Shown here: positions 3,046 through 40,346 of the stretch, in pieces
How the letters are laid out: each line of letters starts with the position of its first letter
How positions within the stretch are numbered: the stretch's first letter is position 1
The notes under the pieces: model-generated
The model's input: the letters and a program-made list of their open reading frames with translations, nothing else
The model's database searches: none
Told to the model about the DNA's origin: nothing
NCBI GenBank assembly: GCA_038210825.1
Contig: JBBQWG010000042.1
Location: forward strand, 145-64,144
Direction of reading: 5' to 3'
From: Verrucomicrobiales bacterium
Lineage (GTDB): Bacteria > Verrucomicrobiota > Verrucomicrobiia > Verrucomicrobiales > V1-33
Length of the DNA: 64,000 nt
Position numbers and translations under genes: made by a program

Positions 3046-4449
3046 ATGCCTCTGACCCTTTTTGACACCATGTCCCGCGCCGCGCGCGGGCTGACGCCTC
3101 TGGATGGCGCGACCTACCGGTTTTACGCCTGCGGGCCGACGGTTTACGGGCCGGCGCATATAGGGAATTTCCGCACCTTTGTGCTGCAGGATCTCTTCCG
3201 GCGGGTGCTGGAACTGGGAGGCACGCCGACCAAACATGTGCGCAACCTGACGGATGTGGACGACAAGACGATCCGGGCCTCGCAGGAACAGGGTCAAAGC
3301 CTGACAGATTTCACGGAGCACTGGACGAAGCTTTTCCATGCGGACTGCACCGCGCTGCACTGCCTGCCGCCTCATGTGGAACCCAGCGCGGTGGCACACA
3401 TCCCGCATCAGGTCATGATGATCCAGGATCTGATGGCCCGCGGGCATGCCTATGCGGCGGCGGATGGGTCGGTGTATTTCAAAATCGCCTCCTACCCGGA
3501 GTATGGCCGGCTTTCCCGGGTCAAGGAACGGGAACTGAAACAAGGGGTCTCGGTGGCGGAGGACGAATATGAAAAGGACACCATGGGCGACTTCGCGCTG
3601 TGGAAGGCGCGCAAACCGGAGGATGGACCTAACTTTTGGCCTTCGCCGTGGGGGGAGGGACGCCCGGGCTGGCATCTGGAGTGCTCGGCCATGATCCGCG
3701 AATATCTGGGAGATACGTTTGATCTGCACTCCGGCGGGGTGGATCTGGTCTTCCCTCATCACGAAAATGAGATCGCCCAGAGCGAATGCTGCGGCGGCAG
3801 GCCCGGATTTGCGGCGCACTGGTTTCACATCACCCATCTGCTGGTGGACGGCAAAAAAATGAGCAAGAGTTTGGGCAATCTCCACACCCTGGCCGATCTC
3901 ATGGCCAAAGGTTACAGCCCGGAGGAAGTGCGCTATGTCCTGACCGCTGCCCATTACCGCGCCCAGTTGAATTTTACCTTTGATTCGCTCGATGGAGCGC
4001 GTCAGGCCATGACCAAACTGTCCCGGGCCGAACAGGCTCTTGCCGCCCGTGCTGGTCAGGAGAAGGCTCCCGTTTATGAAGCCCTGACGGGTCAGGATCC
4101 CGGTCCTTTTGCGCTGGCGTGGACGGCGTTGCATCAGGACCTGAACACGGCTGAAGCCCTCGGTCACGTGTTCACGACCTTGAAGTCCCTGAAAGCTGAA
4201 GCCATGGCACCTGACACTGCCATGGCTGCGTGGCGCGGTCTTCATCTGATTCTTGCCGCGTTTGGCATGGTGCTGCCTCAGGAAATGGCAAGCGAGGTGC
4301 CGGATGAGGTCCGGGCAATCGCCGAATCCCGCTGGGCCGCCCGCACGTCGAAGAATTGGGCGGAATCCGACCGCTTGCGTGGTGAGTTGGATGCCATGGG
4401 CTGGGCCATGAAGGATGGCCGGGAGGATTACACGCTGAGCCGGAAATGA
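3046..4449 (+). CDS. cysS: cysteine--tRNA ligase
   Basis: Class I aaRS motifs HIGN (GPAHIGNFRT) and KMSKS (KKMSKSLGN), plus GWHLECS. Length is 467 aa. Confidence 0.97.
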   Translation: MPLTLFDTMSRAARGLTPLDGATYRFYACGPTVYGPAHIGNFRTFVLQDLFRRVLELGGTPTKHVRNLTDVDDKTIRASQEQGQSLTDFTEHWTKLFHADCTALHCLPPHVEPSAVAHIPHQVMMIQDLMARGHAYAAADGSVYFKIASYPEYGRLSRVKERELKQGVSVAEDEYEKDTMGDFALWKARKPEDGPNFWPSPWGEGRPGWHLECSAMIREYLGDTFDLHSGGVDLVFPHHENEIAQSECCGGRPGFAAHWFHITHLLVDGKKMSKSLGNLHTLADLMAKGYSPEEVRYVLTAAHYRAQLNFTFDSLDGARQAMTKLSRAEQALAARAGQEKAPVYEALTGQDPGPFALAWTALHQDLNTAEALGHVFTTLKSLKAEAMAPDTAMAAWRGLHLILAAFGMVLPQEMASEVPDEVRAIAESRWAARTSKNWAESDRLRGELDAMGWAMKDGREDYTLSRK

Positions 4450-11506: not shown

Positions 11507-11629
<123 letters not shown>

Positions 11630-11750
11630 TTCCCTCCCTCCCGAAAACCGTTTGCCCCGCCCGCTGGCCTGTGGGAGAAAACCGGTTCCACCCGGCGATT
11701 GGGTCCGATCCGGCCCTGCTGCCCCTCACGCCTCCTCACGCCTCCATTTC

Positions 11751-12734
11751 ATGTCCAAGCATTACCTCGTTACCGGCGGCTGCGGTTTCATCGGCAGCAA
11801 TTACATCCGTCAGCAACTGCGGGCCCAACCGGACCTCCGCATCACCAACTTTGATGCCCTGACTTACGCCGGCAATCCGGAGAATTTGCGCGACGTCGAA
11901 GCCTCTGCGGGCGACCGGTATGCCTTTATCCACGCCGATCTGGCGGATGCCCCCGCCGTCGCTGCAGCCTTTGCGGGCCGAAGCTACGATGCCGTGGTCA
12001 ACTTTGCCGCAGAATCCCATGTGGACCGCAGCATCGAAGGCCCGGAAGTCTTTGTGCGTGCCAACATCACCGGCACCTACAACCTGTTGGAGGCTGCCCG
12101 CAAAAATAACGTCAGGCGCTACCTCCAGGTCTCCACCGATGAGGTCTATGGTTCCCTTGGCGATACGGGTTACTTTACCGAGACTACCCCGCTGGCCCCC
12201 AGCAGTCCTTACTCCGCCAGCAAGGCTGCCGCCGATCTCCTCGTCCTGGCCAATCACCACACCTTTGGTCAGGAAGTTGTGGTCACCCGTTGCTCGAACA
12301 ACTACGGCAAATACCACTATCCGGAAAAACTCATCCCTCTGATGATCATCAAAGCCATGCACAACGAGCCGTTGCCCGTCTACGGCGATGGCCTGAACGT
12401 GCGCGACTGGATCCACGTGGAAGACCATGCGGCTGGCATCCAGCGTGTCCTCGAGCAGGGCCGCTCCGGGGAGGTCTACAACCTCGGAGCCAGCCAGGAG
12501 TGGAAAAATATCGACATCGTGAAGCTCATCCTCCGCGTCCTCGGCAAACCGGAGAGCCTCATTTCTTTTGTCAAGGACCGTCCTGGCCACGACCGCCGTT
12601 ACGCCATCGACTCTGCCAAAACCAAAACCGAACTCGGTTGGACGGCCCAGCGCCAATTTGATGAGGCTATCGCCGAAACCATCCGGTGGTATCAGGAAAA
12701 TGAAGCCTGGTGGCGACCTTTGATGAAGAAGTAG
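11751..12734 (+). CDS. rfbB: dTDP-glucose 4,6-dehydratase
   Basis: MSKHYLVTGGCGFIGSNYI (Rossmann GxxGxxG), YSASKAAADLL (YxxxK), and a typical length of 327 aa from ATG 11751. Confidence 0.95.
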   Translation: MSKHYLVTGGCGFIGSNYIRQQLRAQPDLRITNFDALTYAGNPENLRDVEASAGDRYAFIHADLADAPAVAAAFAGRSYDAVVNFAAESHVDRSIEGPEVFVRANITGTYNLLEAARKNNVRRYLQVSTDEVYGSLGDTGYFTETTPLAPSSPYSASKAAADLLVLANHHTFGQEVVVTRCSNNYGKYHYPEKLIPLMIIKAMHNEPLPVYGDGLNVRDWIHVEDHAAGIQRVLEQGRSGEVYNLGASQEWKNIDIVKLILRVLGKPESLISFVKDRPGHDRRYAIDSAKTKTELGWTAQRQFDEAIAETIRWYQENEAWWRPLMKK

Positions 12735-14670: not shown

Positions 14671-15207
14671 ATGCTGAACCGACTCCTGATCCTTCTCTCT
14701 GCCGTCTTCCTAACCGCCTGTTCCAGTGGCGACAAGGCCCCGACAACAGACTACCGTGCTCTCGAAACGCCCACGGGCGAAGCGGTGCTCCGGCACCTTC
14801 TGGCAAACTGCCCTCACCGCACCGAAGCCAAACAACTCACCATCGTGCTCGGCCCCCTCCAGGATGAAGCCTCCACGGAGTTTGAAAACAAATTCGCCGA
14901 CACCGGCCTGACCGTCACCCCTTCCCGCCGCCTCGTGGCGGGCGCGGTGAATGGCGAGGTCCGCATTTTCGACGGCACCACCAACCAGGCCCCGATCATC
15001 CTTCAACTCTCCTCCCTGACCCCGGAAGCCTCCAATCCGGCCAACTGGGAAGCCATCGCCGCGTGGGCCTTTAAAGACAAAGCCCAGCGCTTCAAACTCC
15101 GCGTCCTGACCAAACCGGACAGCCCCCCCGAAATCCGCCGGATCGAAGAGATTCCCATCGCTCCGCGCAATCAGGACGGCATGCCTGCACCTCAGGCAGG
15201 GAAATAG
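14671..15207 (+). CDS. lipoprotein, function unknown (178 aa)
   Basis: ATG 14671, 4 nt after the OmpA-like stop, gives MLNRLLILLSAVFLTAC|SSGD (lipobox LTAC). Confidence 0.7.
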   Translation: MLNRLLILLSAVFLTACSSGDKAPTTDYRALETPTGEAVLRHLLANCPHRTEAKQLTIVLGPLQDEASTEFENKFADTGLTVTPSRRLVAGAVNGEVRIFDGTTNQAPIILQLSSLTPEASNPANWEAIAAWAFKDKAQRFKLRVLTKPDSPPEIRRIEEIPIAPRNQDGMPAPQAGK

Positions 15208-15245
15208 TTATTTGTTATGGGCTGTTTGTTATTGGGGTCAGCAGG

Positions 15246-16412
15246 ATGAAAAAAACCAGCCGGGCAAAACCCACCAGGGGGAGCACAGGCGTCCCGCCTG
15301 TCCCGCCGGGTGTCCCACCCGGTGCCGGACCTCCGGCTCCCCAGAGCCCCCTCTTTTCAACGTTCAAGGTTCAAGGTTCAACGTTCGACGTTAACACTTC
15401 AAAAATCCTTCCCCCCGGAATTCCCTGGGCTGCCGCCTTCCGCTCCCAACTCCTTGCCTGGTTCCGCGCCGAAGGCCGCGACTACCCATGGCGGCAGACT
15501 ACGGATCCCTATGCCATCCTCGTTTCGGAAATGATGCTGCAGCAGACCCAGATTGCCACGGTGCTGGGCCGCGGTTACTATCAACGCTGGATGGATACTT
15601 TCCCGGATGTGGCCACCCTTGCCGCAGCGGCGGAGCCTGACATCCTGCGCGTCTGGGAAGGACTGGGATATTACAGCCGGGCCCGGAACCTGCAGAAGGC
15701 CGCCCGGGCCGTGGTGGATGATTATGGCGGTGAGTTTCCCCGCAGTGTGGAAGGGCTGTTATCCCTTCCTGGCATCGGGCGATACACCGCAGGGGCCGTG
15801 GCCTCGTTTGCGTGGAATCTGCCCGCTCCCCTTGTGGATGGAAATGTGGCCCGGGTATTTGCGCGGCTTTTTGCCTGCGATGATCCCATCGACCGTCCCC
15901 CCATGCCGCAGCAGCTCTGGGAGTGGGCCGCAGTCCTGCTTTGTGAGGATGATGCCCGACGCTACAACAGCGCCCTGATGGAGCTGGGCCAGCGGATCTG
16001 CAGTCCCCGGGCACCGGCCTGTCTGATCTGCCCGGTGCGGACCTGCTGCGCCTCCGCCGGTCCTGCGGCCGCCAGCCGGCCCCGGAAGTCCCCGGCCCGG
16101 GCCACCGTGGCCGTAGTGGAACATGCCCTCTTCGCGCGGCGGAATGGAAAGATCCTGCTGCACCAGGAATCCGGAAAACGCCGCCATGGCCTTTGGAAGC
16201 TCCCCGAGCGTCCGGCTGCTGAAACCACCCCGCTCCGGAAAGTCCTGACGAATTCCTACGCGATCACGCACCATCGGGTAACCCTGCATATCCATGATGC
16301 GCCGGACGCAGAGGCCGGTCCCGGAGAAACCTGGCATTCCCTGTCAAAATTGCCGTCCCTGCCCATGCCCGGCCCCTACCGGAAGGCGTTGAATCAGTTG
16401 CTGGGCAGTTGA
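15246..16412 (+). CDS. mutY: A/G-specific adenine glycosylase
   Basis: HhH-GPD region LLSLPGIGRYTAGAVASF, a four-Cys segment CSPRAPACLICPVRTCC in the position of the MutY Fe-S cluster loop, and a NUDIX-like C-terminus. The only in-frame start upstream of the conserved core is ATG 15246, so the N-terminal ~60 aa, including the heptamer array, are provisional. Confidence 0.88.
   Translation: MKKTSRAKPTRGSTGVPPVPPGVPPGAGPPAPQSPLFSTFKVQGSTFDVNTSKILPPGIPWAAAFRSQLLAWFRAEGRDYPWRQTTDPYAILVSEMMLQQTQIATVLGRGYYQRWMDTFPDVATLAAAAEPDILRVWEGLGYYSRARNLQKAARAVVDDYGGEFPRSVEGLLSLPGIGRYTAGAVASFAWNLPAPLVDGNVARVFARLFACDDPIDRPPMPQQLWEWAAVLLCEDDARRYNSALMELGQRICSPRAPACLICPVRTCCASAGPAAASRPRKSPARATVAVVEHALFARRNGKILLHQESGKRRHGLWKLPERPAAETTPLRKVLTNSYAITHHRVTLHIHDAPDAEAGPGETWHSLSKLPSLPMPGPYRKALNQLLGS
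15354..15395 (+). repeat. heptanucleotide array (TTCAACG family, 6 units) inside the mutY 5' region
   Basis: TTTTCAA CGTTCAA GGTTCAA GGTTCAA CGTTCGA CGTTAAC, translated in the mutY frame as FSTFKVQGSTFDVN. Confidence 0.9.
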
Positions 16413-17443
16413 TTCGCCCATGCGGCGACCTGGGGGATGGCCGCATCAGGAAAGCCGGAATGGAGGGAACAGATGTCAGGATCAAGCTGGTCCACAGGCA
16501 TCAGGTGGCCCGCTTTCCAAACCGTCGTCCCGGGGTGCCATGGGCCGACCTTGCGGGGATCCGACCAGGTGTGGAGACTCAGCACGTGAGGTGTCAGGGC
16601 CGCCGCAATGTGCATGGGCCCGCTGTCCACACTGATGACCCCGCAGGCGCGGCGGATCAGCCAGATCAGTTCGGACAGGGTCGTCTGGTTGAGGAGATTG
16701 TGCGTGTTGGAAGGGAGCCCGGGGAGCGGGAGATCACTGCGGCCGACGAGAATCACCGGGAGTGGCGCCAATGCCTGACAAAGCGCGGCGGTTTGTGAGG
16801 TTGTCAGGGATTTTCCGGTGCCGCGGCTGAACGGGTGAAGGAGCAGGGGGGCCGGGTGGGGGGGAAGGGAAGGGTCATCGTTGAACGTTGAACATTGAAC
16901 GTTGAACGTTGAAGGATTCAGAGAGGCGGGGCAGGTGCCCTGCGGAAGAGGGAAGACTGTTGGCCCGTCAGCCCCAAGCGCCCGGGGCAACGCCAGGGAG
17001 CGGTCGATGGCGTGGGCGGCAGGATCGACGGGAATAAGGTGGGTGTGGAAAAAGCGGGCTCCTTCCCGGCTGTCGCTGAAGCCGATCCGGACCGGAGCCC
17101 GGCTGGCGCGGGCAGTCAGACCACTGCGGAGCAGGCCCTGGAAATCGAGAGCGATGTCCGGATGGAGGCTGGCGGGGAGCTGTTTCAGCCAGGCACAAAA
17201 GCGCCAGAGTCCGCCCATGCCCCGGAATTGCTCCCTGGGAAATGCCAGGACTCCCGCAAGATCGGGATTCCCCTCAAGCAGAGGGGCGAAAGCCGGATTG
17301 GCCAGCCATGTGAATTCAAGGTGGGGAAATTTCTGTTTCAACAAATGCACCGCTGGCAGCGTGTGAACGAGGTCGCCCAGCGAACTGGGCTTGATGACCA
17401 GCGCCCGCCGGGAGGAGCTGAAGTCAGGCAAAACGGAGGACAT
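16394..17443 (-). CDS. glycosyltransferase family 9 (LPS heptosyltransferase-like)
   Basis: RRALVIKPSSLGDLVHTLPAVHLLKQKFP...; C-terminal half LLLHPFSRGTGKSL...ISVDSGPMHIAAAL. It overlaps the mutY 3' end convergently by 19 nt. Confidence 0.9.
   Translation of the reverse strand: MSSVLPDFSSSRRALVIKPSSLGDLVHTLPAVHLLKQKFPHLEFTWLANPAFAPLLEGNPDLAGVLAFPREQFRGMGGLWRFCAWLKQLPASLHPDIALDFQGLLRSGLTARASRAPVRIGFSDSREGARFFHTHLIPVDPAAHAIDRSLALPRALGADGPTVFPLPQGTCPASLNPSTFNVQCSTFNDDPSLPPHPAPLLLHPFSRGTGKSLTTSQTAALCQALAPLPVILVGRSDLPLPGLPSNTHNLLNQTTLSELIWLIRRACGVISVDSGPMHIAAALTPHVLSLHTWSDPRKVGPWHPGTTVWKAGHLMPVDQLDPDICSLHSGFPDAAIPQVAAWANQLPSN
16879..16913 (-). repeat. heptanucleotide array (5 units; TTCAACG on the coding strand) inside the GT9 gene
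   Basis: The plus strand reads CGTTGAA CGTTGAA CATTGAA CGTTGAA CGTTGAA. The coding strand translates as PSTFNVQCSTFND, between the two GT-B halves. Confidence 0.9.
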
Positions 17444-17477: not shown

Positions 17478-17587
17478 AACCGCGAATGGACGCGAAAAAA
17501 CGCGAATCGGTGCAGAGGCCTGCCAGGGACTCACCAGCGTTTTTCTTTAAACCTTGAATTCGCGTTCATTCGCGTTCATTCGCGGTT
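17478..17587. promoter_or_regulatory. 30-bp imperfect inverted repeat built from 10-bp-phased CGCGAA/TTCGCG hexamers
   Basis: Left arm AACCGCGAATGGACGCGAAAAAACGCGAAT (17478-17507). Right arm ATTCGCGTTCATTCGCGTTCATTCGCGGTT (17558-17587). 26 of 30 positions are complementary and the spacer is 50 nt. It lies between the phosphoesterase stop (17596) and the GT9 start (17443). Confidence 0.6.
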
Positions 17588-32124: not shown

Positions 32125-34281
32125 TCAGTCCGTGCCTCGGAGCAGCGCCAGTTTTTCGCAGGCTTTCAGGTCCAGTTTGCCACTGGCCAGCACGGGGATT
32201 TGTTCGATCCGCACGAGGCGGCGGGGAATCCAGAGAGACGGCACTCCCTGCTCCAGCAGGGTGTATCGGAGCTGGATGATCTCCTGTTTGACGGCTTCGC
32301 TGGCGACGGTGCTGAGGAGGACCAAGGCCTCTCCCTTGTCATCGTCCGGCACCCCCACGACGGCGATGCGGCGTTCGCTTTCCCCTTCCAGATGGAGGGC
32401 GCGGGTGATGTGTTCCTCCACGATTTCATGCGGCACCATTTCGCCTCCGATCTTGGAAAAGCGGCTGAGGCGTCCTTCGATAAAAAGAAATCCATCCTCA
32501 TCGAGCCGTCCGATGTCCCCGGTGCGGAACCAGTCATTCTGGAGGACTTCCTCGGTTTTGCGGGGTTGTTTGAGGTATCCCTTGAAGACGTTAGGGCCCT
32601 TGAACCAGATCATACCGGACTGGTTGACGGATAGTTCGGCATCGGTGGAGGGATCCGTGATCCGGATGGCGAGACCCGGGAGCAACTGACCCACGGAGCC
32701 GACCCGGCGCACCGGCAGCACCGGCCATGGGGAATTGTCAGGTTCGGGCAGATTGAAGTTGGTGGCGGGGGTGGTTTCGGTGAGGCCGTATCCCTCCATG
32801 ACCGGTTTGCCGAATTTCTTGAGAAATTCCTCCTCCAGGTTGAGCGGCAGTTTTTCGGCTCCGGTGACGATGAGTTTGAGACTCGCCAACTGCTCGACCT
32901 TGACCCGTTTCAGATAGCCGCGCAAAAAGGTAGGGGTGCTGAGCATGAGGGCTACCCGGTGCTGGTCCACCAGTTCGGACAGTTTGACCACCTCCAGCGG
33001 GCTGGGATAGGTGACGAGGGGATGCCCCTGCATGATAGGGAACCACAGGGTGACGGTGCCACCCAGGGAATGAAAGAGCGGGAGGGAGCCGAGAATTTTA
33101 TCCTCGGGCGGCAGTCCGAGGCGGAGGGCAAACTGGGTGACGTTGCTGACAATATTCCGGTGGCTGAGGGCCACGCCCTTGGGCTCACCCGAACTGCCGC
33201 TGGTGAAAAGCAGGGCCGCTTCCCGGTCGCCGCCTTCCGCGGAAAGGCCTAGCAATTTCGCAAGGATGGACACCGGCAGCAGTTTGAGGGCAATGAGCCA
33301 CTGGATGATCTTCGGCTTCAACTGCGGCATGATGCGCTCCAGAAACATCAGTTGTTTGGTGGGCGGCCATGGAAAGCTCTGCACTTTCCTGACAAAGGCA
33401 TCGGCGGTGAGGAACCGGTCGATCCCGCTTTGCCGCATGGCGCTTTCGACGGCTTCCTTGCCGGCGGTGAAGTTGAAGTTGACCGGGATTTTTCCGGCGA
33501 GGACGGCAGCCATGTTGGCGACCAGTCCGGCGCGCCCGGGCGGCAGGGCGATCCCAATCCGGGGCTGCTGGGTTTCCTTTTTGATCAACTGGGAAAGCGC
33601 GGCCGCCGCCGCGAAGATTTTGCCATAGGAGGTCACGCTGCCATCCATGCCATCCACGATATGCCCGTGGGTGCCATGTTTTTTGAATCCCGCAAGCAGC
33701 ATGCGGCCCAGGGGAACATTGAGCGCCGGCCGGGTGGCGAAGGCCTCGGCACTCGCAGCAATCAGGGCGGCCTGCACGGCGGCGAACGTGACCCCGGCTG
33801 CGGGAATCACGGGCGCGATAGCATAAACGACCTCCGCGCTGGAGAGACCCGGGTCGATGGATAGCACTTCGCTGCGCGGGTAATCCACGCCGATGGCCTG
33901 AATGGGCATGCCGGACCGGCAGAGATCCTCCAACAGCAGGCGGGGAATAGCGTGATTGGCCACGGGCGGGGCCGTGACCGTGGGTGGCACATAAAGAACC
34001 ACGTTGCCAGCCTGGATGGCCGCATGCAGCGCCTCGTGAGCCCCGGGGGAACCGCGTTCGATCACCGGCAGGTTCAGTGCGGCAATGGCATGGGCCGTAT
34101 CGTTGGCGTAGGCCGCGCCGGGTTCCGTCAGCAAGGTCAGGGCACGTCCGGCCGCCAGTTTGGCCAACCGGGGCAAATCCCCAGGAGCCAGCCGGGCCGG
34201 GAGGAGCAGGACTCCGTCAGAGGATAATAAATCGGTGTGGAGCACCGTAACACCGCGGGAAGTAGTAGTGGCGTGGGCCAT
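32125..34281 (-). CDS. AMP-binding acyl-ACP/acyl-CoA synthetase-like protein (Aas C-terminal-domain homolog) with extra N-terminal domain
   Basis: LLFTSGSSGEPKGVALSHRN (AMP-binding core), MEGYGLTETTP, WFRTGDIG, ASGKLDLK. Start is ATG 34281 (MAHATTTSRGV). The ORF-track N-terminal extension to 34794 runs through intron domains V/VI and is rejected. Confidence 0.85.
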   Translation of the reverse strand: MAHATTTSRGVTVLHTDLLSSDGVLLLPARLAPGDLPRLAKLAAGRALTLLTEPGAAYANDTAHAIAALNLPVIERGSPGAHEALHAAIQAGNVVLYVPPTVTAPPVANHAIPRLLLEDLCRSGMPIQAIGVDYPRSEVLSIDPGLSSAEVVYAIAPVIPAAGVTFAAVQAALIAASAEAFATRPALNVPLGRMLLAGFKKHGTHGHIVDGMDGSVTSYGKIFAAAAALSQLIKKETQQPRIGIALPPGRAGLVANMAAVLAGKIPVNFNFTAGKEAVESAMRQSGIDRFLTADAFVRKVQSFPWPPTKQLMFLERIMPQLKPKIIQWLIALKLLPVSILAKLLGLSAEGGDREAALLFTSGSSGEPKGVALSHRNIVSNVTQFALRLGLPPEDKILGSLPLFHSLGGTVTLWFPIMQGHPLVTYPSPLEVVKLSELVDQHRVALMLSTPTFLRGYLKRVKVEQLASLKLIVTGAEKLPLNLEEEFLKKFGKPVMEGYGLTETTPATNFNLPEPDNSPWPVLPVRRVGSVGQLLPGLAIRITDPSTDAELSVNQSGMIWFKGPNVFKGYLKQPRKTEEVLQNDWFRTGDIGRLDEDGFLFIEGRLSRFSKIGGEMVPHEIVEEHITRALHLEGESERRIAVVGVPDDDKGEALVLLSTVASEAVKQEIIQLRYTLLEQGVPSLWIPRRLVRIEQIPVLASGKLDLKACEKLALLRGTD

Positions 34282-34407
34282 GCCGGATAGAGGGGGGAGG
34301 AAAAAGAAAGGAAAAATCAGCAGAAGCGGGGATCGCAGGGGCTGGAAGACCCGCAGTATCCCCAGTGGCGAAGAAATCTCAATGAAGAACCGCTGAAGGG
34401 AATCTTG

Positions 34408-36470
34408 ATAGGGGGTAGGGATGGCGCATTGGTTTGCGCCACCCCTCCCTCCGAACCGGACGTGCAGATTTCCCGCATCCGGCTCTCCGGTCAACATGTT
34501 GCTCCTTCTTTTCGGAGACTCATCACGAATTCGTCCCGGGCCGAGACCAGACTGTATAACCCGAGTTTCCCGAAGTAGCGGTTGGGCCACCGGAAGTGGT
34601 CTGGGCCGTGGCCCCGACCCTTTCCTTTGTGCCTTTTGCGCAGGATCGACCGCAGGCGCATTCTCACCCACTGGTCCATTTTCACATGTTCTCCCCGCAG
34701 CGCCTGCTGGAAGTAGTTCCCCCAGCCCCGCAGCACCGGATTGATGCCCGCGATGATGGCCGGGAGGCTTTTCCCGCTGGTGCGCCGCGTCCATGGTCTC
34801 AGCGTGCCACGCAGTTTCTGCTGGCTTTTGGGTCTGATGAGCCGCAGCAGCTTGCCTTTCCCGGACCGCTGGAAGCGGTAGCCAAGGAAGTCGAAGTAGC
34901 TGCCGCCCGGGACCATGTCCACGATCCGGGTTTTGTCAGGATGCAGGGTAAGCTGCGCTCCTTCCATCCACCCTTGCACAAGGGCGAGCGCCTGCCGGGC
35001 GGCTTCCCCGCTTTCGGTCAGGATGACAATGTCATCCGCATACCTCACGCTTCGGATGCCGTTGGCAGCGAGGAGGTGGTCGAGGGGATCAAGATAGAGG
35101 TTGGCCAGCAAGGGGCTTATGACACCCCCCTGCGGACTGCCTTTGTCAGGCGTTTCCAGCTCTTTCCCTTCTTCCTGGACGGGCTGTTTGAGGAACCCTT
35201 CGATGAGGTCCAACACTTTGCCGTCCGCGATGCGCTCTTTGACCAGCGCCATCAGCGGAGCGTGCGGGATGTTGTCGAAGTAACCCTTGATGTCCACGTC
35301 CACTACATGTGTCAGGCCGCTGCACAGCAGTCTTTCGACTTCGCGCAGGGCGTCCTTGCAGCCGCGTCCGGGCCGGAACCCATAGCTGCCATCCGCAAAC
35401 TGGCTCTCGAAGATTGGTTCGATCACCATTTTCAGCGCCGCCTGCACCACGCGGTCGGTGACCGTGGGGATGCCCAGCGGACGCCGTTCACGGCTGCCTG
35501 CTTTGGGGATTTGGACCCGTCGGACTGCCTGGGGCCGGTAGCTGTTCTTCGTTAGGCGCTCATTCACGGCGAGCAGCCGGTTTTGGCTGTCTTGGTCGAA
35601 GAACTCCACGCTGATCCGGTCCACGCCGGCAGCCCCGGCATTGGACCGGACGGCTTCCCAGGCCATCCCAAGGGTTTTGACGGCCCTCACTTTGTCGATC
35701 AGGCTGAACCACTTGTTTCCTTCTTTCCCTCTTCCGAGGGCGATGAGCATGGCTTCCGTCCATACCCCGCGTTCGGCCCCGTAGCGTTGCCACAGGTCCT
35801 CTTCAGCTTGCTTATCCCCTGCGGGAACTGACGCTGATGGTTCGTCGCGGTTCATGGCTTTAGTCCATTTGTTTTCCTGCCGCCCTTCGCTCCACCGGCG
35901 TTACCCGGCTTCCGCGCTACTACGGCGGCTCTGACTCCTGACAGGCACCGTCTCCGGTGGTCTTTCCGGTCAGGTCTCCCATCTTCACGCGCACTACCCC
36001 TGCTCAACCTACTGCCACCAACCACCCAAAACGCGCCGCCACTCCCACCATGTTCACGGGGGGACGGTTCCTGCGGATGCGCAGCTTGCCCCAGCCGCAG
36101 GAGGACTTCGCCGTTCACTCGCGGGCTCGTCCACGTTTCCGGCCGAATCGTGTTCACTTGCGTTGCGGTCGATTGAGTTCTCCTCACGATGCTCCCCACC
36201 CCACCTCGCGGTGACGCAGTTTCGTTTGAGTTATTTACGGTTTTAATGGGTTCGTTATGCCGGGTCTCCCACCCGGCGGGGTGGTGCGGCTCGATGGCGC
36301 ACGAGTGCGCGGGGCTTGCCGCCGCATTACAGTTTGGAGTGCGCGCGGCCCTCCGCCGCTTTTCGGGCGAGATAGCTTGCTGATAGTGGGTGAAGGTCCG
36401 CTTCAAGGCCGCCGCGGCTCCGCGCCCTATGCCTCCGGCATCCTCCTAAAGCGGCAGGGGGCTGCCGCAC
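34408..36470 (-). mobile_element. bacterial group II intron (~2.06 kb) with intron-encoded RT/maturase
   Basis: The 5' end is GTGCGGCAG at 36470. Domain V is GAGCCGGATGCGGGAAATCTGCACGTCCGGTTC (34485-34453). Domain VI has a bulged A and ends ...CCCCCTAT at 34408. The RT ORF sits in domain IV. Boundaries are hand-derived. Confidence 0.85.
34491..35855 (-). CDS. group II intron reverse transcriptase/maturase
   Basis: RT motifs RPLGIPTVTDRVVQ, GSPQGGVISPLLANLYL and RYADDIVIL. Maturase X domain INPVLRGWGNYF. No HNH endonuclease domain follows. Confidence 0.95.
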   Translation of the reverse strand: MNRDEPSASVPAGDKQAEEDLWQRYGAERGVWTEAMLIALGRGKEGNKWFSLIDKVRAVKTLGMAWEAVRSNAGAAGVDRISVEFFDQDSQNRLLAVNERLTKNSYRPQAVRRVQIPKAGSRERRPLGIPTVTDRVVQAALKMVIEPIFESQFADGSYGFRPGRGCKDALREVERLLCSGLTHVVDVDIKGYFDNIPHAPLMALVKERIADGKVLDLIEGFLKQPVQEEGKELETPDKGSPQGGVISPLLANLYLDPLDHLLAANGIRSVRYADDIVILTESGEAARQALALVQGWMEGAQLTLHPDKTRIVDMVPGGSYFDFLGYRFQRSGKGKLLRLIRPKSQQKLRGTLRPWTRRTSGKSLPAIIAGINPVLRGWGNYFQQALRGEHVKMDQWVRMRLRSILRKRHKGKGRGHGPDHFRWPNRYFGKLGLYSLVSARDEFVMSLRKEGATC

Positions 36471-39091: not shown

Positions 39092-39760
39092 TCACACCGC
39101 CCGCATGGCCGAGACCGCCGCGGTCATGTCAGGAGCGCCGAACAGGGAACTCCCGGCCACCAGAACGTTCGCCCCGGCCGCCGTGGCCAGTGCAGCAGTT
39201 TCCTGGGTAATGCCGCCGTCCACTTCGATGTGATACTTCAAGCCATGGGCCCCGCGGTAATCCCGCGCCGCCCGCACCGTCTCAAGGGTATGCGGGAGCA
39301 GGGGCTGACCTCCAAAGCCGGGCACGACGGTCATCACCAGCAGCAGATCGATCTGATCCAGATAGGGGATGACCATGGAAAAATCCGTTTCCGGCCGCAG
39401 GGAAAGGCCGGCCTTGCAGCGCGCCTCCCGGATCCGGCGCAGGGTTTCGCCCACCTCATGCCGGGCCTCCACGTGCACCGTGATGCCATCGGCCCCGGCC
39501 TTGATAAACCGTGGCAGATAGTGGTCCGGCCGCTCGATCATGAGATGCACATCCAGATAGATATCGTTCGTCTTCGACAGGCACTCGATGAATTGCGGGC
39601 CGAAAGTGATGTTATCCACAAAGTGCCCGTCCATGACATCACAATGCAGCCAGTCAGCCCCGGCGCGGATGGCGCGGGAACATTCGTCAGGAAGACGGCT
39701 CCAATCCGCCGCGAGCAGCGAAGGAGCGATGATGCGGGACGTGCAGGGATGCTGGATCAT
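39092..39760 (-). CDS. rpe: ribulose-phosphate 3-epimerase
   Basis: IAPSLLAADWSRL, LHCDVMDGHFVDNITFG, MTVVPGFGGQ, EVDGGI. ATG 39760 (MIQHPCTSRII). Confidence 0.93.
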   Translation of the reverse strand: MIQHPCTSRIIAPSLLAADWSRLPDECSRAIRAGADWLHCDVMDGHFVDNITFGPQFIECLSKTNDIYLDVHLMIERPDHYLPRFIKAGADGITVHVEARHEVGETLRRIREARCKAGLSLRPETDFSMVIPYLDQIDLLLVMTVVPGFGGQPLLPHTLETVRAARDYRGAHGLKYHIEVDGGITQETAALATAAGANVLVAGSSLFGAPDMTAAVSAMRAV

Positions 39761-39829
39761 GATAGAAGAGGTTCCGGAAGGAGCCCACTCATGGCATGTC
39801 ATGGCCCGCCGGGCAACGTCAAGTCGGAG

Positions 39830-39934
39830 GCAGCGGGCAGCGGGCAGCGGGCAGCGGTCGGCAGTCGGCAGTCGGCAGTCAGCAGTCAGCAGTCAGCAGT
39901 CAGCAGTCAGCGGTCAGCGGTCAGCAGGCAGCGG
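39830..39934. repeat. blocky heptanucleotide tandem array (15 units; reverse complement of the CCGCTGA family), intergenic
   Basis: 4x GCAGCGG, 3x TCGGCAG, 4x TCAGCAG, 2x TCAGCGG, 1x TCAGCAG, 1x GCAGCGG. It lies 70 nt upstream of the rpe start. Confidence 0.9.
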
Positions 39935-39973
39935 CGGCCAGCGGTTGCCGGGCACCGGCCAGCTGCCAGCGTC

Positions 39974-40346
39974 CAGCGCCAACGGCGCATCCCATGACAG
40001 CCTGGGGTTTCAACCCCAGGAAACCCGGCCCCCCCCGATCCGGAGCGCCATCGGCGCGTTCCATGATGGCGATGTGGATGGCGACGACCAGGCGGGGAAA
40101 TCGGCTTGCTCCGGCCAATCATGAAACGCGCTTTCAGCGCTGGGAAATGGGGAGGGATGATAACCTGGGGTTGAAACCCCAGGCTGTCATGGAATGCGTC
40201 GTTGGCGCTGAAGCGTGTGCATCAAGTGCAACTCGTCTGCCCCCCGAGGCTGTCATGGAATGCGCCGTTGGCGCTGAAGCGTGTGCATCAAGTGCAACTC
40301 GGTCTGCCCCCCGAGGCTGTCATGGAATGCGCCGTTGGCGCTGAAG
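39974..40346. repeat. composite repeat region: 47-bp inverted repeat arms plus 2.5 tandem copies of a 66-67 bp unit
   Basis: Left arm 39974-40020 (cagcgccaacggcgcatcccatgacagCCTGGGGTTTCAACCCCAGG) is the reverse complement of 40164-40210. Tandem units start at 40182, 40248 and 40315 (ggctgtcatggaatgcgYcgttggcgctgaagcgtgtgcatcaagtgcaactcg(g)tctgccccccga). Confidence 0.85.

Follow-up and report, generated by a model that had tools for sequence, protein, structure and literature searches.

The window analysed here is a 64,000-nucleotide (nt) stretch of contig JBBQWG010000042.1 from a Verrucomicrobiales metagenome-assembled genome (MAG), and the element in question is a short array of tandem heptamers inside mutY, close to the 5' end of that gene. 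The features at this locus, each on the strand given, are as follows.

15246..16412, plus strand: mutY coding sequence, 388 amino acids, with an HhH-GPD glycosylase core and a probable C-terminal NUDIX-like domain
15208..15245, plus strand: spacer between the upstream gene, which ends in TAG (15205-15207), and the mutY ATG; a decayed heptamer array
15246..15419, plus strand: MutY N-terminal extension, residues 1-58, made up of a basic tip (MKKTSRAKP), a proline-rich segment and the array-encoded residues; predicted to be disordered
15354..15395, plus strand: mutY array, six degenerate heptamer units that encode MutY residues 37-50, FSTFKVQGSTFDVN

The open reading frame (ORF) at 15246-16412 matches the Pfam families HhH-GPD (PF00730; residues 93-227, E value 3.7e-19) and HHH (PF00633). 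Its match to NUDIX_4 (PF14815) reaches 26 bits, under the curated cut-off of 35; precomputed matches to PF14815 are present in many MutY homologues, and AlphaFold2 predicts with confidence that residues 288-387 form a beta-rich C-terminal domain. The search retrieved 6834 homologues, which are called A/G-specific adenine glycosylase wherever a source name is attached. Residues E95 (in VSEMMLQQT) and D198 (in VDGNV), which we take to be the equivalents of E37 and D138 in E. coli, are invariant across 48 homologues, and so are C252, C259, C262 and C268 of the four-cysteine iron-sulfur cluster loop. As judged from its sequence, the ORF is MutY, an intact and ordinary repair gene.

Read directly, positions 15354-15395 consist of the units TTTTCAA CGTTCAA GGTTCAA GGTTCAA CGTTCGA CGTTAAC, an exact match to the six heptamers that a first-pass annotation of this DNA had listed. 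In the TTCAACG register the array spans 15356-15397. Its first nucleotide lies 108 nt from ATG 15246, so that the array shares the frame of the mutY ORF, as had also been claimed; an example of a tryptic peptide encoded by it is VQGSTFDVNTSK. Tandem Repeats Finder recovered head-to-tail 7-nt units at 15356-15392 (period 7, 5.3 copies, 90% matches), the form of a heptanucleotide simple sequence repeat (SSR). When the two-unit pattern GTTCAASGTTCAA was searched with at most one mismatch, eight matches were found in the window, where shuffles lead one to expect 0.05, and the eight were divided equally between the mutY array and a second array at 16879-16913, which lies in a gene for a glycosyltransferase of family 9 (GT9). 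The earlier observation that the units are imperfect is borne out by an identity of 83% to (TTCAACG)6 and by a longest perfect period-7 tract of 20 nt, or 2.9 units (GTTCAAGGTTCAAGGTTCAA at 15362). Folded as single-stranded DNA, the array formed no special hairpin (z = -1.0), and Rfam recognized no RNA family at the 5' end of mutY. A scan for sigma-70 promoters around the 5' end, uninformative for this phylum, yielded a single site, inside the core (15553-15581), and two weak terminator-like hairpins.

Start codon and N-terminal tail of MutY

The only canonical in-frame start before the MutY core is ATG 15246. The next is ATG 15531, within the conserved SEMMLQQT helix, which agrees with the previous statement that no in-frame ATG, GTG or TTG separates position 15246 from the conserved residues; between the two ATG codons only the non-canonical ATC 15405 and ATT 15420 occur in frame. 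The first-pass annotation had left two options for this 5' end, translation of the array within a proline-rich extension or use of a non-canonical start codon. We compared the window with relatives that share 72-84% MutY protein identity with it, over an alignment that runs from the upstream gene through the conserved DYPW motif. The protein cluster of the window's MutY has a single member. Loci and proteins used in the comparisons are given by L and P numbers.

The first nine codons, MKKTSRAKP, are the same in L204, with three synonymous changes (CGG/AGG, GCA/GCT and AAA/AAG), and, from ATG 15246 up to the core, the insertions and deletions in five lineages all have lengths divisible by 3. 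The region directly upstream is conserved as well. The gene before mutY is a conserved one of 179 amino acids, and the 38-nt spacer that follows its stop codon can be read as the units TTATTTG TTATGGG CTGTTTG TTATTGG GGTCAGC, then AGG. Units of the TTATYGG type occupy the same spacer position in L003, L004, L124 and L204, and five lineages have a common layout of stop codon, four TTATTGG-like units, a GGG-rich stretch and ATG. This spacer array recalls the TAACTGA repeats, which likewise sit just upstream of start codons (MacGregor 2015).

Orthologues that lack the array start at an ATG codon 4-14 codons before the core, not at ATT or ATC, and have short N-termini, MKQPRAKASPTPGEILWA in L205 and MSNILWA in L207. 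The ATY codon at the I-P-W position encodes a conserved isoleucine, for which L124 has leucine (CTC). Because the MutY of L205 begins with MKQPRAKAS, which resembles MKKTSRAKP, and continues directly with the core, the alignment suggests that the ancestral tail was short and that the proline-rich segment and the array were inserted into it. The AlphaFold2 model of MutY, built with 48 homologues, has a mean predicted local distance difference test (pLDDT) score of 87.9; residues 1-58 score about 40, as do the stretches 1-46 and 50-54 within them, and have no secondary structure, and the score exceeds 90 from about residue 61. Since the start at 15246 is supported and residues 1-58 are of low predicted confidence, the array is almost certainly translated from ATG 15246 within a disordered MutY tail.

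The alternative is that the array belongs to an untranslated leader, with initiation at ATC 15405 or ATT 15420, and that the heptamers are bound there by an S1- or Csp-like RNA-binding regulator, a role that has been proposed for the TAACTGA repeats. Heptamer arrays do lie directly 5' of starts at 15208-15242 (mutY), 39820-39940 (rpe) and 11535-11640 (a dehydratase-like gene), the TAACTGA repeats are similarly placed, and TTCAACG arrays are enriched at the edges of ORFs (43 observed versus 32 expected). This leader is nevertheless difficult to reconcile with a sequence 5' of the array that behaves as coding and keeps MKKTSRAKP through synonymous changes, with insertions and deletions that all preserve the frame, with the ATG starts of L205 and L207 and with the CTC codon of L124 at the isoleucine position. 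We consider it decidedly unlikely. Of the two options left by the first-pass annotation, the translated extension is thereby retained, and the non-canonical start is unsupported.

Unit number in orthologous mutY genes

In the TTCAACG register, the units of the lineages that carry the complete array are the following.

Window: TTCAACG TTCAAGG TTCAAGG TTCAACG TTCGACG TTAACAC
L001, L002 and L209: TTCGACG TTCAATG TTCAACG TTCAACG TTCGATG TTAACAC
L003: TTCAACG TTGGACG TTCAAAG TTCGACG TTCGACG TTACCAC
L004: TTCAACG TTCGATG TGCAACG TTCAGCG TTCCACC TTGGCAC

All have six units (42 nt) in the same place and register and differ by substitutions only, so that unit number is fixed across the four array lineages. 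The identity of the array to that of the window is 90.5% in L001, L002 and L209, 85.7% in L003 and 78.6% in L004, and that of the mutY core DNA is about 75%. The P0003 cluster, which groups proteins with at least 90% identity, contains five other full-length proteins that match P0003 exactly at the N-terminus, and in two more the array peptide is unchanged and follows a longer upstream ORF; the array peptide of P0131, which is clustered with P0009, is equal in length to that of P0009. In L204 two or three degenerate units are left and the region is 36 nt (12 codons) shorter, in frame, and L124 has no array in frame. Variants off by one or two units (±7 or ±14 nt) were not found among the orthologues compared.

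One member of the P0003 cluster, P0123 of L208, is nearly identical to P0003 and has everything upstream of the IPWA core replaced, the mutY array included. The replaced region of L208 contains a heptamer array of its own, (GTTGAGA)x8 at 2816-2873, about 200 nt upstream. The mutY 5' boundary in the P0003 group appears from these sequences to be a rearrangement breakpoint.

These comparisons bear on the function that the first-pass annotation had proposed for the array, a phase-variable mutator switch in which gain or loss of one unit by slipped-strand mispairing turns mutY OFF or ON and produces a reversible G:C to T:A mutator subpopulation. In favor of the proposal, 7 cannot be divided by 3 and the array stands between the sole usable start and the core, where a change of one unit in either direction would abolish MutY. 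Precedent exists in Helicobacter pylori, where a homonucleotide tract in mutY undergoes frameshifts and the mutation rate rises about 26-fold (Huang et al. 2006, as related in PMC8875331), and heptanucleotide SSRs can themselves be phase-variable, as at the hmwA promoters of Haemophilus influenzae. The window array resembles the H. pylori tract in lying within the mutY ORF, where a change in length would cause a frameshift and a mutator phenotype; the H. pylori tract, however, is a perfect mononucleotide run with observed frameshifts, and the window array has imperfect 7-nt units in constant number. With the (ATCTTTC)n contingency locus of hmw1A and hmw2A it shares a 7-nt tandem unit. The hmw repeat lies between two promoters, modulates gene expression and varies in copy number within patients, whereas the mutY array is inside an ORF and consists of six degenerate units of invariant number.

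The array has the position and unit length of an SSR contingency locus and lacks two other features typical of one: no difference in unit number was found between relatives, and there is no long tract of identical units. Six units are kept in four lineages in spite of a core DNA identity of only about 75%, one species cluster is also constant as judged from the peptide, and all length changes seen are multiples of 3 nt. The perfect tract of 2.9 units compares with 13-24 tandem units in the hmw1A promoter constructs and their derivatives, the GT9 sister array is likewise constant at five units, and the fold of the single-stranded DNA is unremarkable. The mutator switch is unsupported because unit number is fixed across lineages, an outcome that the first-pass annotation had itself set against its proposal, and we regard it as extremely improbable.

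Related arrays in the window and in other bacteria

The second array and the gene that contains it are described by the following features.

16394..17443, minus strand: GT9 heptosyltransferase gene (Pfam Glyco_transf_9, E value 2.5e-21), convergent with mutY; the two genes share 19 nt at the mutY 3' end
16879..16913, minus strand: second TTCAACG array, five units, read in frame as part of the linker that joins the GT9 halves

The GT9 array lies 1.5 kb from the mutY array, is inverted relative to it and reads STFNVQCSTFN; both arrays are read in the same phase (TCA ACG TTC). Relative to the orthologues of L205 and L207, whose proteins are 79% and 78% identical to that of the window, it falls within a 45-nt in-frame insertion. 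The window, L210 and L211 have five units each, with substitutions only at the DNA level. The array peptide is present in the closest GT9 homologues (P0134-P0136 and P0139), and more distant homologues have a short linker. In the alignment an ancestral CAAACG stands opposite the last unit, a hint that microhomology may have seeded the array. By sequence comparison, the GT9 array is an independent second case of a translated array of fixed length that is decaying.

Upstream of the GT9 gene, at 17558-17584, there is a perfect 10-nt tandem repeat (ATTCGCGTTC, 2.7 copies). The same motif is found upstream of GT9 in L210 (about 4180-4205) and may be a conserved regulatory direct repeat.

The recurrence of one unit in two neighboring genes raises the question of whether the array is a selected module, shared by mutY and GT9, in which either the peptide STFxVQxSTFDV or the array as DNA or RNA is functional. 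A variant would have the two inverted arrays, 1.5 kb apart, cooperate, for example as recombination or pairing sites. Inverted arrays of the same unit do flank the mutY core in equal codon phase, both are kept in several lineages, and the identity of the array is slightly over the gene average in two comparisons. A functional peptide would not be expected to carry the many non-synonymous substitutions seen, with FKVQG, FNVQR, LDVQS and FDVQR at equal positions, and the array is absent in the close relatives L124, L205 and L207 and in P0123 of the P0003 cluster. Furthermore, mutY and GT9 are not adjacent in L001, L003, L205, L207, L209, L210 or L211, so the inverted pair is specific to the gene order of the window; no chimeric or inverted arrangement was seen. 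We find a selected module very unlikely.

In L003 the gene downstream of mutY is unrelated to GT9 (30% identity in the alignment). A role of the two inverted arrays in inversion or recombination was considered and rejected, as both genes are collinear with their orthologues and their adjacency is specific to the window.

Two longer arrays of mixed heptamers lie elsewhere in the window.

11535..11640, minus strand: mixed heptamer array, intergenic, just upstream of ORF 11652-12734
39820..39940, plus strand: mixed heptamer array of GGCAGCG, GTCGGCA, GTCAGCA and GTCAGCG, intergenic, directly 5' of rpe

The former contains blocks of GGGACAG (three copies), CGTTCAG (three) and CGGTCAG (four), plus variants, and its CGTTCAG is one base from the mutY unit CGTTCAA; ORF 11652-12734 is a gene like those for GDP-mannose dehydratases and epimerases. 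The GGGACAG block has G-quadruplex potential. The gene rpe occupies 39092-39802 on the minus strand. The period-7 arrays of the window are thus those at 11535-11640, 15208-15242 (decayed), 15354-15395, 16879-16913 and 39820-39940. Once overlapping Tandem Repeats Finder rows are removed, five arrays of the window have a period that 3 does not divide; in three of them it is 7, and a period-21 row at 39831-39934 is built of heptamers as well. The window is in these respects a host of heptanucleotide SSRs, with several dispersed arrays of related units and a prominent period of 7.

Other elements were observed in the window. After the array at 39820-39940 there are two matches to Acido-Lenti-1 RNA in opposite orientations, one at 39975-40020 on the minus strand (39.5 bits, above the gathering threshold) and one at 40164-40209 on the plus strand (29.3 bits), and a 66-nt tandem repeat at 40177-40346 (2.6 copies, 97% identity). 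A group II intron on the minus strand is represented by a reverse transcriptase/maturase ORF at 34491-35855 (RVT_1, GIIM) and an Rfam Intron_gpII match at 34410-34487. Both overlap the 5' end of an 889-codon AMP-binding ORF at 32125-34794, and because of this overlap the ORF is probably over-extended or the gene interrupted.

Beyond the window, an exact scan for (TTCAACG)3 in one genome per species found at least 119 loci. To judge by record title, about 36 of the matches listed are from Verrucomicrobiota or others of the Planctomycetes-Verrucomicrobia-Chlamydiae group, 24 from Bacteroidota (mostly Prevotella), 20 from Chloroflexota and 10 from Acidobacteriota, and further hosts among them are Geomonas and others. 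Over 843 kb of sequence these listed loci hold 204 arrays of period 7, of which the TTCAACG class accounts for 118 and a variety of other units for the remainder. As a control for repeat periods we used 79 distant MutY loci among the matches to the conserved pattern EMMLQQTQ in metagenome contigs, and these hold 6 period-7 arrays in 421 kb; among the matches listed in this protein-guided scan, L124 is the sole close relative.

At the listed loci, 37 of 123 TTCAACG arrays fall within sense ORFs of 200 codons or more, another 43 are found at a long ORF's edge, and the remaining 43 are clear of long ORFs. The corresponding figures for random positions in these loci are 62.5, 32.4 and 28.1. The arrays are depleted from gene interiors, since 37 are embedded versus 62.5 for random positions, yet they are far from excluded. 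Eight of the ten tested ORFs with an embedded array have Pfam domains, the arrays falling in linkers or loops. The array sits before a GT2 domain or between PP-binding and reductase domains in some, and inside the matched span of PSD1, glycogen-synthase, DUF6298 and HATPase_c domains in others. A (TTCAACG)n tract has no stop codon in its three sense frames, where it reads FNVQRST cyclically, and TGA in every antisense frame; arrays can therefore persist within genes in the sense orientation only.

Individual loci illustrate the range of these arrays. In L117 (431-2731) the array is in frame (RSTFNVQRST) in the HATPase_c domain of a CHASE2-PAS histidine kinase, and in L018 (1189-2889) it is in frame within a glycogen synthase. 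L065 (Limisphaerales) and L059, L112 and L114 (a Verrucomicrobiae MAG) have very long arrays, of 26-34 units, in which variants form blocks, such as TTCAACG followed by sixteen copies of TTCAAAG, or interleaved TTCAACG and TTCAGCG; 8 kb may hold several arrays. The arrays at these loci look recently active, in contrast to the decayed copy in mutY. A literature search for the TTCAACG string or its peptide gave unrelated plant papers only.

We see an outside chance that the TTCAACG arrays are the footprint of an active process, one that crosses lineages and seeds a single heptamer into many loci in bursts. Such seeding could proceed, for example, by templated insertion of arrays at breaks or microhomologies or by copying between arrays. 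If this is true, the process reached mutY and GT9 in the ancestor of the subclade and wrote peptides of the STFNVQR type into enzyme loops and linkers in at least four phyla.

Origin and significance of the mutY array

Heptanucleotide repeats are the most abundant class of long SSR in many bacteria, and polymerase slippage favored at a 7-nt register has been proposed as the cause (Mrazek et al. 2007, as cited in PMC4679880 and PMC4692102). The known class closest to the arrays described here comprises the long heptanucleotide SSRs, including the short tandemly repeated repetitive (STRR) sequences of the cyanobacteria Calothrix and Nostoc, the TAACTGA repeats of Beggiatoaceae, Cyanobacteria and Bacteroidetes, and the GGGAATC repeats of Xanthomonas. 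Like these, the arrays have head-to-tail 7-nt units, several different units per genome and blocks of variants; they are mostly intergenic, often before start codons, patchy across phyla and occasionally read through in the stop-free orientation. They differ from the described repeats in their unit, TTCAACG, and in their host, a Verrucomicrobiales MAG, and the mutY copy differs further from the long intergenic repeats in being short, decayed and in frame in a housekeeping gene. Mazel and colleagues reportedly described in 1990 the STRR units CCCCAGT, TTGGTCA and CAACAGT in heterocystous cyanobacteria. By unit and host the present array is not an STRR sequence in the strict sense, and the window units CGGTCAG and CAGCAGT merely resemble those of STRR. 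The mutY array is an ordinary member of a class already known.

At the protein level, the MutY tail is comparable to low-complexity tails and linkers that derive from in-frame tandem repeats, being disordered, poorly conserved and tolerated by the fold. The mutY DNA differs in its period of 7, which gives the peptide a period of 7 residues per 21 nt. Because 7 cannot be divided by 3, only frame-restoring unit numbers or flanks can persist.

We conclude, with a probability of roughly 80%, that the mutY array is an old and decayed heptanucleotide repeat, of a type frequent in its lineage, that is translated in a tolerated tail and has no switching role. In this account, a TTCAACG repeat would have arisen in, or been copied into, the 5' part of mutY in the ancestor of a Verrucomicrobiales subclade and become fixed downstream of the start codon, ahead of the part that encodes the catalytic core. 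Its survival there would have depended on sense orientation, on a site that tolerates extra residues and on an inserted length that is a multiple of 3 (6 x 7 = 42 nt). Translation from ATG 15246 would read through the array, which would contribute 14 residues to a tail of roughly 58 residues ahead of a normal MutY, and point substitutions would then have degraded the units until the slippage-prone behavior was lost. We infer an origin by replication slippage or array expansion and a neutral encoded peptide. Most likely the array has no function beyond being tolerated.

Several points weigh against this conclusion. In two of three comparisons the array is conserved somewhat above the average of the gene (90.5% and 85.7% versus about 75%, over n = 42 nt), which could hint at weak constraint. 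The perfect tract of 20 nt could slip at a low rate, and a survey based on proteins would under-sample frameshifted OFF alleles, since gene calling would give them as truncated or absent. There is a slight possibility of initiation at ATC 15405 or ATT 15420, but nothing supports such a start.

For mutY itself the array matters little: the repair gene is ordinary and intact, the disordered tail being decoration, and in annotation the long ORF from 15246 should be kept. A period-7 repeat in an ORF does not by itself make a contingency locus; the perfection of the units and their number in different strains decide, and here both are negative. Bacteria have long been known for an excess of heptanucleotide repeats that still has no explanation, and the TTCAACG arrays extend it to new phyla. 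This unit recurs across the four phyla named above and is repeatedly in frame in real proteins, and such repeats thus contribute to protein tails and linkers.

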